From NCBI GenBank assembly GCA_010015585.1, contig ML975160.1: a stretch of DNA of 64,000 bases. One strand, given 5' to 3'. How positions within the stretch are numbered: the first letter of the stretch is position 1; each line of letters begins with the position of its first letter. The notes under the pieces are model-generated. The model was not told where the DNA came from and did no database searches. It worked only from the letters and a program-made list of their open reading frames with translations. This document shows, piece by piece, positions 6,950-14,000 of the stretch. The DNA comes from Eremomyces bilateralis CBS 781.70. Taxonomy: Eukaryota. The translations under genes and the position numbers were made by a program.

Positions 6950-8191
6950 TTACAGTTCTAACCACTGCTGGAGTTCTGTCAGTCTGTCGGCTACTCGGAT
7001 CCCATTCCAGGTCTCCGAACCGTCAGTCTCATACGCCAGCGTCGGCATACCCACTTGCTCGATAGCAAAGCTTGCAGAAACACCAGCCATAATCGAGGCT
7101 TCGATTAAGCTTTCTCCACGGGTCAGCGCAACAATGAGTCCACCTAAGAAGGTGTTCCCTCCCCCCGTTGGATCAACGACTCTCTCAGCGGAGCGGTGGT
7201 ATGGCGGGATCCACCGCCCGGTCGTGTTCTGCGACGCCACATAGCACCCATCTTTGCCAGCCCGAATTACTACGCCTCCTATTCTTGATCCTCCCAGGTC
7301 CGTTCCAATGGTAGACGAAAGCCAATCCTGGGTAAGTTCTTCCACAAGAGGCCGATCCACATCGCCTATCGACGTGTTTCCGCTCTTGTCCCAAAACGCG
7401 GCTAGCTCCTGGTGATTGGGGCTCACCACGTCGACCACCTGCAGAGCTTTGCGGCAGTTTTCTAGCTCGGACGGTAGGCAGAGGTCTGGGACGGGTTCCC
7501 AGACGAAGATTGGCCGAGGCAGCTCCTCACTGGTGTTTCGAAGCTTCAGGATATTCTCAACGAGATCGATGCAGCGGGCTGGAGAGCAAATGAGGTGGAA
7601 CGATTTCGACTTCAGCAGCCTTGGGGAGAGGGACGTGTGATCGAGACGTATTTTCTCAGTCAAGTATTTGAAAGCTGCTCTCTCTTAGTCCTATGTTGGT
7701 GCAACCAGAGCAGAAGCATATTAGAAGCAAAAGAGCAAAAAAAGATCAGAAAAATTCACCTCTGTACTCGTTTTCCATATATCCGTTCCATGCTCTTGTA
7801 GTCAGCCGATCCGGCGTCTCTCGAAACACGCAGCTCGTCCGCCAGCGATTGATCTCCTCTCTGAGCTCTACCGGAAAATCGGATCCAGCGTCTACAATCC
7901 AGCCAACGGACCGTGAGAGTGGAGGTGGAGATAGTAAACGGGCTCCTAGAGCCGAGTAGGAACCCGCGCCGCCGAGGATGTTATACACCGGGTCCTTGGG
8001 GGGTGGGAAATGGATCTCATCTGATATTCAAGCAAGGTGTCATCAGATCGATATCATTCATTGAATGGATTCAGCCGGGATAGGTGGCTCCAAGTACCAA
8101 TTATGAACATCCCAAGAGTACAGAAGTCGATATCCTGCTCGGCATCTTGACGTGTTGACTGGACGTCATTTGTGCCTGAGTCTGAACCCAT
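6950..8191 (-). CDS. pfkB/ribokinase-family protein (Mak32-like); exons 8191-8098, 8020-7760, 7674-6950
   Basis: DFCTLGMFIIDEI, ILGGAGSYSALGAR, FVWEPVPD, VVSPN, VVDPTGGGNTFLGG; intron phases join in frame. Confidence 0.85.
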
Positions 8192-8724
8192 TGAGTGTCA
8201 GCAACGTCGAGGACGTATTATGATTGCGTAGACATGTATGTTCAACGTGAATCCATATTCGACCTATTGAGATTTGGTTGATTGTAAGAGGATGGGTCTA
8301 GCGTCAGGATAGAGCAGCGTGAGTGATTACTGATTAGGCGTCCGATCCTTGAGACAGCAGCCCACTGATTGACCAACCAACAGTGGGGAAACTTCGCTGC
8401 CTTGATGTCTTGATACCTCGCTGCCTGAGCTCCGTTCTCCCTAGAAATCATCCACGAGTTCCTTTAGACAACAGCTTATTGTTGGAACAACGTATTAGCT
8501 TTCCAGTGCTTCTCCTATAATTGACGGAATATCATTCCCTTTTGTCCCGTTTGGAATCTTCCCACCTCATCTCTGTGCTTCATTTCTGTACCACATTGAG
8601 CAACGGAGAAGGTCAACCTGCGCGTTCCCGAGCTCCTCCTTGCCTTCACTGGACATATTCGCAAGTTCCACCACGACGGAACTCTGGGTTAGCTCCAATT
8701 CTATAACCACGGACGGTGACGGCA

Positions 8725-10675
8725 ATGGCGACGACTAACATGAACAACCTCACCACCCTCATCAAACGGTTCGTCTATTTCATCATCTCAATTCGAATCT
8801 CCAACTCCTCCAATTCCACCACTCCCTACCGTATCCCCCGGCTTCCACCATGGAAGCGAACCCTCCTGCCAAACTCGCCCGTCCCATCTCGGAATCCTCG
8901 CTTACGGAGCTTCTCCACAGGCTAGAAGCCGCAACGTCGCGGTTAGAAGACATTGCTTCTTCGGCCGCCAGCTATGATCCGGCCGACTCGCAGCCGGGGA
9001 CAACCGCCCCTGCGGCCGCCACCTCCAAGCCCGACTCCTCCGCAAAGCAACCTCCACCATCCGCCGCATCGACTCCACGGCCCGAAACACCATCGGAACC
9101 TTCCATACCGAATGTGGTCGCCTTGTTGGATTCGTTGATGAGCGAAGCCCTCGAGCCGTGGATGGAACTGAGCGAGAAGATAGGTGGCCTGGTCAAGGAA
9201 CAAGTGAGTCGAGAATCATCCCCGTCATGCATGAAACTGGACTGATGCGATGCTCGAACAGTCAGCTGGGGTGGATAAAGCCTTTCAGGAGCAACGGAGC
9301 TTTATCCTGCTTACCACCCAGGCCAAGAACCCGGGTCAAGATTCGGCGACGTATATGGAGTGCCTCGTGGGGATCCAATCCCAGATCATCAAGGTCGACG
9401 AGATGGTGTCGAAGAACTACGGTTCGCAGTTTCGCGATCACCTCGCCATGGTTGCTGGCGGACTTCAATGCCTGAGTTGGGTCACTGTGGACTCGAAACC
9501 GCAAGACTTGGTCAGCGAGCTATTTGGCGGCGCCCAGATGTACGGAAATAAGATCTTGCAGAAGTACAAGACCGAGTAAGTCCCCCTCCATGCTTTTGTG
9601 AAGCGCAGTCGTTCTGAATTCATCCCATTAGGGATCAAACGCAGGTCAAATGGGTCCAAGCCTTCTACAAGCTCTTCAAGATGCTGCAAGAGTATATCCG
9701 GACCAATTTCCCGAAAGGCATTACATGGAATCCCAAGGGTATCGAAGCGTCGGAGGCCTTGAAACAAGCAAAGGCCTCGAAATCAGGAGCCAAAGCGCCT
9801 GGTCCTCCTGGCCCCCCTCCACCACCTGCTGGTGGTGCTCCACCTCCCCCTCCGCCGCCCGCACCCGCACCGCCACCATTCACGGGCGACGTTTCGAAAT
9901 CATCCGCCAAGGAGGGCGACATGGGTGCGGTGTTCCAGGAGTTGAGCAAAGGCGAATCGGTCACCCAAGGGCTTCGCAAAGTGCAAGCATCGCAACAAAC
10001 GCACAAAAACCCGTCGCTCCGAGCCGCCGCCGCCGCGGTGCCAACCCGGAGCGACAGCTCTTCGTCGGCAGGACGGGGTAAGTCGCCGACGCCGCCGGGG
10101 AAGAAGCCGAAGCCGGAGAGCATGCGGACGAAGAAGCCGCCGCGAAAGGAGCTGGATGGGAACAAGTGGATTATCGTACGTACCCCCTACGCCGACCCTC
10201 GGACCGCTCGTTGCTGATCTCTCTGGGTTGATAGGAAAATTACGATTCTCCAGCCGGACCGGTCGAGATCTCGGTCGAACTCAGCCATTCGATCCTCATC
10301 ACGCGCTGCAAGAACACCACGATCCGCATCCACGGTAAGGCGAACGCCATCTCCGCCGACTCCTCGTCACGGCTTTCGATCATCCTCGACTCCCTTGTCT
10401 CCTCCGTCGACGTCATCAAGTGCCCCAACTTCGCCGTGCAGGTGCTCGGGTCGATCCCGACGATCCTGCTCGACCAGGTCGACGGTGCCACCGTCTATCT
10501 GAGCAAGGAGAGCGCAGGCAGCGAGATCTTTTCGAGCAAGTGCTCCAGCGTCAACGTCAATGTTCTGGGTGACGGCGATGACGGCGACTATAAGGAGTGC
10601 CCGGTGCCGGAGCAGATGCGGAGTTTTATCAAGGATGGCAAGTTGGTCACGGAGATTGTCGAGCATGCGGGTTGA
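8725..10675 (+). CDS. SRV2: Adenylyl cyclase-associated protein CAP/Srv2; exons 8725-8768, 8921-9203, 9262-9575, 9632-10175, 10235-10675
   Basis: LIKRLEAATSRLED N-terminal motif, helical domain, polyproline tract, WH2-like GLRKV...THKNPSLR, beta-sheet C-terminus ending IVEHAG; all introns GT-AG and phase-consistent. Confidence 0.95.
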
Positions 10676-11037
10676 GTGCGCATTTCATATCACCAGCGTT
10701 TTTTTAGGAGAAAAAAATAATCATTCCGCGGGCATCAATTCTAGCGAATACCCGATATACTTGGATACGGCGACCGACGGGCGAGGGAATCATGCGCTCT
10801 CCATCTTCTTTAAACCTGTAATTTACATCCGATTACTTGATCTAAATACTACGACCCCGGGGTCGCGTAGAATCTACGACATCCGTGAGCGGACAATCTG
10901 AATTTTAAGGCGTGACAACGAGTTGCAGCAGTGCGATTTAGTAAAAACCCATCATGATATTTTTGAGCGACGAATACACTCCGCGAAACCCAGCCCATGC
11001 AACGGAAAGCAGAAAGCAACGCGACCAATGCCCACGC

Positions 11038-14000
11038 TCACGAAATGTCGAACAGCGGCTTCAGCTTCTTGAGCAGGTGCCACTCGTCCATGCTGACGTC
11101 CTCCTTGTAGAACTCCTTCAGCGTGTCGATGGTCGTCCGCGAGATCTTCGAGTACAGGATGTCCTTCTCCTCCAGCTGGCGGCCGTACAGCGGCTGGTTG
11201 GGCCCTTCGATCTTGACCGCGACGGACGGCTGGCCTTTTTTGCAGATCGGGAGGGCCTTGTGGTCGCGCTCGATGGAGGTGCTGGGACGGTGTTAGCGGT
11301 GATATCACGGGTTAGAAATGGGGAGACTCACACTCGGCCCATATCGATGATCTCCTTCTTCCCCTCCGCGTTCGTCTTGATGGCGCAGATGGGCGTGTGC
11401 ATCTTCAGCGTGCCATCGATGACGTCGACGCCCACCACGATCGGATCCTTGTTGTTGAACACCGCGACGGGCTTCAGCACGCACGGGAACACGGCCAGCA
11501 TCTTGCTCTCCTCCTTCCGCTGCTCCGCTAGCTGCTTTAGATGGTTGGTGAAGTCGTCGAATAGGTGGTAGATGATGTCCGCGGTGAAGATCTTGACCCC
11601 GACGTCGGCGGCGTATTTCTCCGCCTCCTTGTCGACGCGCACGTCGAAGCAGAGCATCACGGCGTATTCCGGAGCGCGCTCCAGCATGACGCCGGCTTGC
11701 ATGACATCACGCTTGTACACGGGCCCGATGCTGATGTTGGCCACTGGGATTTTAGAGACGCGGAGGAACTCGAGCAACGCTTCCAGGGAGCCCAGGGTGG
11801 AAGCCTGCACGCTGACGCCTTTGCCGGTCTTGGAGATGCGGGAGAGCAGGTTCTCGAGATCGGACATGACCTCCTCCTCCAGATCCTCTTCGTCGTCGTC
11901 CTCGCCCACCACGAGGAGGCGGGAACCGGCGATGGCGGAGTCGAGGCCGTCGGCGGATATCTTGATACCCATGGCAGCTTTGATTTCCTTGTTGTGAACG
12001 TACTGTGACTTGACACGGAGCTCTTTCATCTCCGCCGGCGTTAGCAGCGCTCGAATGTTGGTAGTGATGGCTCCGTTGAGACCGCATAGCACTATTCGGT
12101 CGCCTTCGCGCAGAACACCGTTCGACAGGATGACATCGATGGTGGTACCCAGACCCTCGATGACCTTGACTTCAAGGACCGTCGCCTCCACCTCCGACAG
12201 ATACATCAGGGAATTGGTCATCCGCTCCTGTGAAAGATTGACGAGCAGCTTCAGAAGGTCGGGGATACCTTCGCCGGTATGCGCGGACGTCGGGACAAGA
12301 GAGACGTTCCGCGCCATGAACCGGTTCTCGTAGAACAGCTCTGAGTTGAACCCTTGCTCGGCGAACGCCAGCTTGGTCTTCTCCAATCGATCACGGAACT
12401 CGCCCTGGCAGCCCTTGTTCTGCATCGACAAGCTGTTCTGGAAGCCGTTGTTGGCGATCTGCTTCCATCCGAACAGACGATCGATCTTGTTCAACGCCAC
12501 GATGAACGGCGTCTTTCGCTCACGCAGGAGTTTCATCGATTCGAGCGTCTGAGGTTCGAGGCCGTGCATGATATCGACGACGAGAATGGCGATGTTGCAA
12601 AGCGAGGACCCACGAGACCGAAGATTGGTGAAAGACTCGTGACCAGGCGTATCGATGACGAGAAGGCCGGGAACTTTGAACTCGAATTTGCCATCTTGGT
12701 TGACGACGGCCGTCTTCTTCTGCAGGGCCTCCACGGGGAAGTAAGTCGCACCGATCTGTTGAGTGATACCACCAGCCTCGCCTTCTTGGACGTTCGTCTG
12801 TCGGACCTTGTCCAGAAGCTTCGTCTTTCCGGTGTCGACGTGCCCAAGAATACAGCAAATAGGGGATCGAAGGTTGGATGCTGACCGAGCTGCCAATGCT
12901 TCCTCGTGCTTCTTCTTTCGCCGTTCCTCTGCCTCCGCCTTCCTCGCCGAAACGACTTTGGCAGCCACGGATGGCTTCTCTTCGTCTTCTGTCTCCTCTT
13001 CCGAGGACTCTTCTGACGACTCTTCGGCCAGAGCCTTTCCGTTCGCGGCGGCCGCTTTCCCGCGAGCTCCAGGCTTCAGTTCTTCTTCCTCTTCGGATGA
13101 GGCATCCCAGCTATCCTTAACACCCTCCAGCTTGGCTGCCTCGGTCTCCCAATCCTCCAAGCCTGCGTCTTCCTCCTCTGGTTCGACAGGCTCAGGTTCT
13201 TGAACCGGTTCCTCAATGTGTGTCTCCTCGAGCTGTTTGGCGGTTTCATCAACGGGCTCCTCTTTCTTCTCCTGGACACCTTTCTTGCCCCCCTTTCGCT
13301 TCCGATTGTCGTATACGGGCTTTTTCTTCTCAGCGCCCGCCTCCAGTCCAAGGACCTTCGCGCCTCCGCTTTCCAGCATCTGCTGCATTCGGATCTTATT
13401 GCGCTCGGCGGCCTCCTTTTGTGCCTTCGTCATGAACTTGCCCTCTTTCTTGAGCTGTTCGATCTTGGCCCTCTCCTTGGCCTTCTTCGCCGCCTTCTGT
13501 TCTTCCTTCCGTTTATTCTCTTCTTCTTCCAGGCGCATACGTTCGATTTCCTTGGTTTTCTCTTCGGCTTCCAATCTAGCTAGCTGCTCTTCTCTCAAAC
13601 GTCGTTCTTCCTGCTGTTTCTGAAGGGCAGCCAGTGCAGCGGGGACCTTCTTCTTTTTGCCCCCAGCCGCTACATCAGGGGTTGCACTAGGTTCGGGTTT
13701 GGCCTCTTCGGCCTTCGCAGGTTGTGGTGCTGGCGTTCGTATGGGTCCGGCAGTCTTCTTCTTTGCAGCCTGCACGCTGTTAGTATCCGCTTCAGGCCAT
13801 CAAAATGGAGATTCATGAATTTCCCGACGTACCTGTTCCTTCTTCCGCTGCTTTTCCCTTTCCTTCTTCTCCTTTTCCTTTTCCTTCTTGGACTTCATCT
13901 TTCCGCCCGGTTGATCGTCCTCATCGTCATCGGCCGGTTCGGCTTTCTGGTACTTGCCACCGGCTTTCCCGCCCTTGCCCTTCTTCGGTTGGGAATAGAG

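Follow-up and report, generated by a model that had tools for sequence, protein, structure and literature searches.

Why should the first intron of a gene for cyclase-associated protein (CAP/Srv2) carry a start codon that reads in frame into the next exon? The gene lies on the plus strand at 8725-10675 of the window, by which we mean the whole 64,000-nt stretch of Eremomyces bilateralis CBS 781.70 contig ML975160.1 that was analysed; it has five exons and is the only CAP match in its own genome, a second copy being absent. Its product is recognised as CAP/Srv2 by Pfam (CAP_N-CM, CAP_N and CAP_C), with matches to the RLE motif region (PF01213; E 7.2e-09, 36.3 bits against a cut-off of 19), the helical folded domain (PF21938; E 1.5e-25) and the C-terminal CARP domain (PF08603; E 2.1e-56). 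Solved CAP chains match the protein with E values down to 8.8e-77, and in the structure search none of them covers the N-terminal helix as its best stretch. The coding part of exon 1 (8725..8768), with in-frame ATGs at 8725 and 8740, encodes the canonical N-terminal helix of a 541-aa form, and its peptide is also present in relatives. Intron 1 (8769-8920; GT at 8769, AG at 8919-8920) interrupts the Arg codon of the first RLE. Exon 2 (8921..9203), common to both forms discussed here, carries the RLE repeats (CAP_N-CM) and the start of the helical domain, exon 3 (9262..9575) CAP_N, exon 4 (9632..10175) the end of CAP_N and a proline-rich linker, and exon 5 (10235..10675) CAP_C. At 152 nt, intron 1 is indeed much longer than introns 2 to 4 (9204-9261, 9576-9631 and 10176-10234; 58, 56 and 59 nt), as the first-pass annotation had remarked, and the coordinates in that annotation were all correct when we re-checked the sequence.

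Splicing of exon 1 to exon 2, giving the 541-aa form, is real: in one contig of run X1 the loose end ahead of 8920 consists of 12 letters of exon-1 sequence, and the same contig skips introns 2-4. That X1 is an RNA run is a guess, no listed run being recorded as RNA, and its contigs leave 8303-8908 uncovered, a hole that proves nothing. The X1 contig, 5329 nt long, extends beyond 11000 towards a convergent minus-strand gene (window 10675-13799), which we take to resemble eIF5B, and overlapping 3' ends of the two genes are possible. On the other side lies a divergent minus-strand neighbour (6950-8295), presumably resembling a PfkB-type kinase, whose intron at 8021-8097 is spliced in run X1.

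The ATG inside intron 1 lies at 8850 in the context CCACCATGG and, as first proposed, opens a frame that runs stop-free into exon 2. This inner ATG and 23 intron-encoded codons (8850..8920) would form the alternative N-terminus of a 550-aa form with the same body as the 541-aa form. The NCBI model P0002 (source name Eremomyces bilateralis; identical protein) begins at the inner ATG, so that, given the exon-1 splice seen in the X1 contig, the database model shows the other form. A C/T-rich tract had been noticed before the inner ATG, and it is there: positions 8775..8849 (75 nt; 34 C, 21 T, 16 A, 4 G), a candidate inner promoter and 5' leader, contain neither AG nor ATG. What the first reading overlooked is that the Leu-Thr codons of the inner helix coincide with a branch-like CTTAC (8901..8905), the likely branch site, and that the acceptor sits inside the His-Arg codons with which the helix ends (Leu-Thr-x-Leu-Leu-His-Arg).

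A feature of one intron could be chance, and the question is whether relatives share it. Searching with a degenerate pattern built on the exon-2 peptide that both forms share, we recovered at least 114 metagenome loci; the counts cover related loci, which are not independent trials, and P values drawn from them overstate. Among the 114 loci listed, 95 show exon 1 together with an intron placed as in the window; another 17 lack this intron, and 2 stop short of exon 1. After removal of near-duplicates, and with the window excluded, 81 introns remained among the matches listed, 56 of them long (at least 85 nt) and 25 shorter. Counting frames that are ATG-led, open, at least 7 aa long and continuous to the acceptor, we found one in the CAP frame in 46 of the 56 long first introns listed, with 4 and 1 in the other two frames, whereas 1000 shuffles that kept the splice signals gave 10.0 ± 2.7 and never more than 19. 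The 25 short first introns listed gave 6 in the CAP frame and 3 and 2 in the others, and four of those six form a related group. In this group (L021, L039, L040, L041) an 11-aa inner frame is squeezed into a 61-62-nt intron, and Thr is lost in three of the four while Leu is kept, as TTG in two. In three Lecanoromycete-like loci (L009, L066, L099) the ATG and frame are kept and Leu-Thr sits one codon nearer the acceptor.

With classes assigned by best hit, labels that are weak for short loci, the frame is present in Dothideomycete-, Leotiomycete-, Lecanoromycete- and Chaetothyriales-like loci. By the same best-hit labels, and among the matches listed, it is absent from 3 of 3 Aspergillus-like, 6 of 6 basidiomycete-like and 7 of 7 Sordariomycete-labelled loci, one of the latter probably mislabelled; annotated Diaporthe and Apiospora proteins show the frame, which is therefore present in some Sordariomycetes. 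Of the 56 long first introns listed, 10 are without the frame, and these include the 3 Aspergillus-like loci and the long Sordariomycete-like ones. Many fungi, to judge from their genes, do without it. In basidiomycete-like loci this intron position is occupied as well, by a short intron that lacks the frame. Two Aspergillus-like loci (L007, L064) have an in-frame Leu-Thr one codon further upstream and no in-frame ATG, perhaps a decayed form of the inner frame, and a group of four (L025, L083, L100, L112) is without intron 1; L025 seems to retain a later intron, which implies that intron 1 was lost in that group. When a Pleosporales inner N-terminus served as query in a region-limited protein search, the query itself was the only hit among 10 candidates.

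One might object that the frame is made of splice signals: the branch motif would read as Leu-Thr and the acceptor as His-Arg by chance, and gene callers would choose the nearest ATG. All 43 Leu codons at position -6 of the listed inner frames are CTN, in the style of a branch site, against TTR in 8 of 44 listed exon 1s, and splice-unaware callers do yield such N-termini from genomic contigs. A branch site that demands CTN and a protein that needs Leu would, however, both act on this codon, and later introns offer a control. In 64 of them, from 33 of the same listed loci, the branch motif mostly starts 13-16 nt from the intron end and in none 20 nt from it, where it starts in 39 of the 56 long first introns listed. 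When the motif is read as Leu-Thr, codons +3 and +4 both have a middle T, giving two hydrophobic codons, in 35 of 51 listed first introns and in 0 of 19 controls, and 42 of the 56 long first introns have T at both -10 and -7, compared with 8 of the 64 later introns. The neighbouring first codon positions are A-rich, unlike a pyrimidine tract. Of the 46 inner frames listed, 38 have hydrophobic residues at each of -6, -3 and -2 and 45 have one at -3, and position -1 is Arg or His in 40.

Further signals lie away from the splice sites. In 15 disjoint pairs of relatives (215 codons, with the ATG and the last 23 nt left out), differences at codon positions 1, 2 and 3 number 39, 27 and 72, and dN/dS is 0.27 in frame against 1.47 and 1.68 out of frame; the window intron has no close partner, so purifying selection on its own frame is inferred from these relatives. 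A purine stands at -3 of 47 of 57 in-frame ATGs but of only 19 of 36 other ATGs among the matches listed. Gaps add little: within the frame 3 of 5 have a length divisible by three, compared with 10 of 45 upstream. Overall identity is about the same in the two parts, 76% upstream and 78% within the frame. In relatives the stretch before the inner ATG has 66-67% C+T, compared with 51% in control introns, and 11% G, with a slight depletion of ATG (13 observed, 19.6 expected, among the matches listed); no shared promoter motif was found there apart from C/T-rich 6-mers, present in no more than 11 of the 47 listed loci. Frame bias, start context and dN/dS all fall outside the splice signals, and together with the control introns they largely refute the chance reading, which we regard as highly improbable. 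The frame signal appears spread over several lineages. The alignment of intron 1 across relatives that the first-pass annotation had called for thus shows ATG and frame conserved (46 of 56 among the matches listed) and dN/dS below 1, and supports a second, intron-encoded N-terminus that is conserved, held by purifying selection and able to re-supply the helix before the RLE.

In protein databases the two forms compete as alternative gene models. Of 284 full-length proteins, 190 have the exon-1 N-terminus, 89 the other and 5 an unmatched one, and the N-terminus differs even within one species (P0038/P0141, P0165/P0327, P0260/P0261); one Sclerotinia nivalis locus tag bears both products (P0197, P0324). 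The exon-1 form is the commoner: among unannotated full-length proteins it outnumbers the inner form 12 to 2 in the Logan- or JGI-only rows of the 120 proteins listed, and 8 to 0 in a Cenococcum cluster. Two Helotiales clusters point to transcripts of the inner form. In the Cadophora cluster, P0304 (on a 2262-nt contig) and P0305 have the inner N-terminus and continue through all three later intron positions, while P0301 (2027 nt) has the exon-1 N-terminus; the genomic calls P0294 and P0297, which begin with the inner one, run into intron 2 and then stop, and P0296 spans exon 4 only. In the Acephala cluster, P0337 (1978 nt) is the inner and P0336 the exon-1 form, and P0334 breaks at intron 3. 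Since the inner-form contigs are mRNA-sized and the genomic calls are broken at introns, spliced inner-form transcripts likely exist in these relatives, and the full-length inner-form proteins of both clusters likely rest on spliced RNA. P0127 (2275 nt), P0055 and P0179 (1783 nt) hint at the same, but their clusters offer no genomic call for comparison. Full-length inner-form proteins of the Diaporthe type (P0011, P0014, P0018, P0029) come from 14-50-kb contigs, where the genes probably have no later introns, and for this reason P0045 and P0050 were not taken as transcript evidence. Some models (P0269, P0348, P0360, P0117-P0119) fuse exon 1 with a portion of the intronic frame and so contain two tandem helices; these are either alternative acceptors or mis-predictions. 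Unannotated near-full-length proteins that start just inside exon 2 (P0289, P0302, P0303, P0236) fit assemblies forking between two 5' ends, a weak hint. In a splicing study of Sclerotinia sclerotiorum, the available part of PMC7749757 has no CAP_C protein in its isoform Pfam table, and a gene with several isoforms and a CAP_N label in its supplement, Sscle05g044500, is a SAPS-domain gene without CAP_C and not CAP.

How would the inner form be made? We think it probable that intron 1, with its conserved start and selected coding stretch, is an alternative first exon transcribed from downstream of both exon-1 ATGs, and an intronic transcription start is to our minds the likeliest route to the inner form. 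The C/T-rich 5' part of the intron would act as inner promoter and leader, and transcripts begun there would lack the exon-1 donor, such that the 3' part of the intron is kept as a coding exon. Its last six codons would be dual-coded, the branch motif as Leu-Thr, then two hydrophobic codons, then the acceptor in His/Arg-Arg codons, and would rebuild the heptad normally supplied by exon 1. The splice signals of an older intron were probably recruited as codons, because the intron position is found also in basidiomycete-like loci, where the intron is short and without the frame.

It is also possible that transcripts of the normal promoter retain intron 1 and that re-initiation or leaky scanning makes a real second N-terminus from them, with regulated splicing at a weak branch site setting the isoform ratio. 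The spliced inner-form contigs could equally be explained as transcripts of this kind. Yet the exon-1 peptide has two Met in 46 of 47 listed loci, the first with a purine at -3 in 42 of 47, and these mostly well-placed ATGs precede the intron. With intron 1 retained, the exon-1 frame in the window (8725..8925, plus strand, 66 codons, stop at 8923-8925) overlaps the inner ATG out of frame, so that on a retained transcript ribosomes would have to leak past two good ATGs to initiate at 8850. The overlapping upstream frame described in the first-pass annotation is therefore present here, but it is not a conserved device: the exon-1 frame passes the inner ATG, blocking re-initiation, in 17 of the 47 listed loci, the window's arrangement included, and stops before it in 30, and across the 47 its stop lies anywhere between -117 and +260, without a conserved layout. 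Retention as an in-frame coding insert fails as well, the intron being 152 nt here and none of the 56 long introns listed being open throughout (lengths modulo three 16/18/22 among the matches listed), and an alternative 3' splice site upstream of the inner ATG would find no AG in 8775-8849. The two exon-1 Met with good -3 positions, the missing in-frame insert and the overlap here favour a promoter over scanning, and we consider retention, the main rival, unlikely. Less likely still, the arrangement may be real in the lineage and vestigial or silent in this species. Loss of the frame is common, and this copy has no close relative against which to test selection; it nevertheless retains every hallmark (CCACCATGG, an open frame, the branch motif at -20, hydrophobic residues at -6/-3/-2, His at -1 and an ATG-free leader). 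The idea of two isoforms is thus partly supported, by a conserved, selected intron-encoded N-terminus and, indirectly, by probable spliced transcripts of relatives.

What might an exchanged first helix do? We take yeast R19 to be the Arg of the first RLE, which makes L16 position -3, kept hydrophobic in 45 of the 46 inner helices among the matches listed. The yeast changes L16P and R19T weaken cAMP signalling (available part of PMC3435248), and the N-terminal heptad region of CAP binds the cyclase C-terminus and drives oligomerisation, according to the portions available of PMC3435248, PMC7543520 and PMC6888645. The two N-termini had been called interchangeable, which goes too far: among the matches listed, the helix from exon 1 hardly varies (0-0.4 bits at -7 to -1), whereas the inner helix varies by 1.7-3.3 bits at -4 to -1 and keeps only the Leu-Thr and hydrophobic pattern. 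The inner extension is P/A/S/T-rich and has a median of 24 aa in all (47 listed loci). A phosphosite of the RPISES type was suggested for this extension but is not conserved: R..S/T in the window's register occurs in 2 of the 47 listed loci, no fixed register being found, and R..S/T anywhere in the extension occurs in 15 of 47 against 8.3 ± 2.4 in shuffles, related loci among the matches listed being counted separately.

Inner residues 1-42 folded with the C-terminal domain of a relative's cyclase scored 0.60, against 0.02 for the best of three controls, in a benchmark where 51 of 78 solved pairs reached the mark and 2 of 108 mismatched ones did, and where only 5 of the 78 solved pairs, and all 4 passing mismatches, lie at 0.60 or under. 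The runs, which used no alignments, agree in at least 92% of contacts, with a partner pLDDT of 66. This model weakly suggests that the inner form may still bind cyclase; the RLE repeats common to both forms are part of the folded piece, the cyclase is from another species and only the inner form was folded, and the two isoforms are not comparable on this basis. In the cyclase of E. bilateralis itself (G000:C28; L115:2310-2370) the C-terminal domain has a Trp-x7-Arg-Leu-Glu motif, invariant in 31 of 31 aligned sequences, that mirrors the RLE of CAP.

The inner form would keep the hydrophobic face for oligomerisation and probably for cyclase contact, and exchange the invariant exon-1 surface for a variable P/A/S/T-rich extension. 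It is possible, if somewhat short of probable, that it is a separately regulated minor isoform that putatively tunes cyclase coupling or the make-up of oligomers, with no on-off switch. More speculatively, and with somewhat less confidence, in an ancestor of several filamentous ascomycete classes the splice signals of an old intron, its branch point and acceptor, may have become codons for a copy of the exon-1 coiled-coil helix, which would have given a second CAP isoform made from an intronic promoter. The two isoforms would then co-assemble, and their ratio in mixed oligomers would be a putative dial between service to adenylyl cyclase and actin turnover that yeasts lack.

We found no published description of a second CAP start within an intron, and no paper joining alternative transcription start, cyclase-associated protein and fungi, in searches that mostly leave subscription journals outside their coverage; the second-isoform system is apparently real, conserved and undescribed. 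The protein resembles the fungal CAP/Srv2 of the available portions of PMC3435248 (Magnaporthe Cap1), PMC12153005 (Aspergillus fumigatus CAP) and the review PMC7543520 in having CAP_N-CM, CAP_N and CAP_C. Unlike the case here, those portions treat one protein per gene: 'intron' and 'isoform' occur 0 times in those of PMC3435248 and PMC12153005, and 'splice' and 'alternative' 0 times in that of the review, where the known CAP isoforms are paralogous genes (CAP1/CAP2, CAS-1/CAS-2). Going by the partial texts of the next three sources, the closest architecture is that of the fission yeast wtf 'Intron-1-ATG' genes (PMC5478263), where one gene likewise yields two proteins by means of a proposed intron-1 promoter and an in-frame intronic ATG. 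In the wtf genes three residues come from the intron and the short form is merely without exon 1, whereas in CAP about 24 residues rebuild a substitute for the exon-1 helix by way of splice signals, in a conserved housekeeping gene. SKI7/HBS1 (PMC3597508) is similarly an ancient case of two proteins from one gene, which many fungi have kept and some have lost, but it uses alternative 3' splice sites to make two different enzymes, while in CAP only the first helix would be swapped. The 5'-truncated SOD2 transcript of Cryptococcus (PMC7961099) also has a regulated downstream transcription start that gives an alternative N-terminus; in that case a targeting peptide is truncated and no intron-encoded replacement is supplied.

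In the available parts of PMC7543520 and PMC3435248, CAP is the meeting point of Ras-cAMP signalling and actin turnover, and its first helix serves both cyclase binding and oligomerisation. An isoform that swaps exactly this helix would offer a natural test of how CAP divides between its two jobs, and in Dothideomycete, Leotiomycete and lichen fungi, studies that rely on CAP cDNA or on N-terminal tags would cover one form only. A second start would also explain why databases flip between two CAP N-termini, even within one species. More broadly, CAP intron 1 may be a clean case in fungi of splice signals that are conserved as dual-coding sequence, together with a conserved isoform that arises without splicing of that intron.
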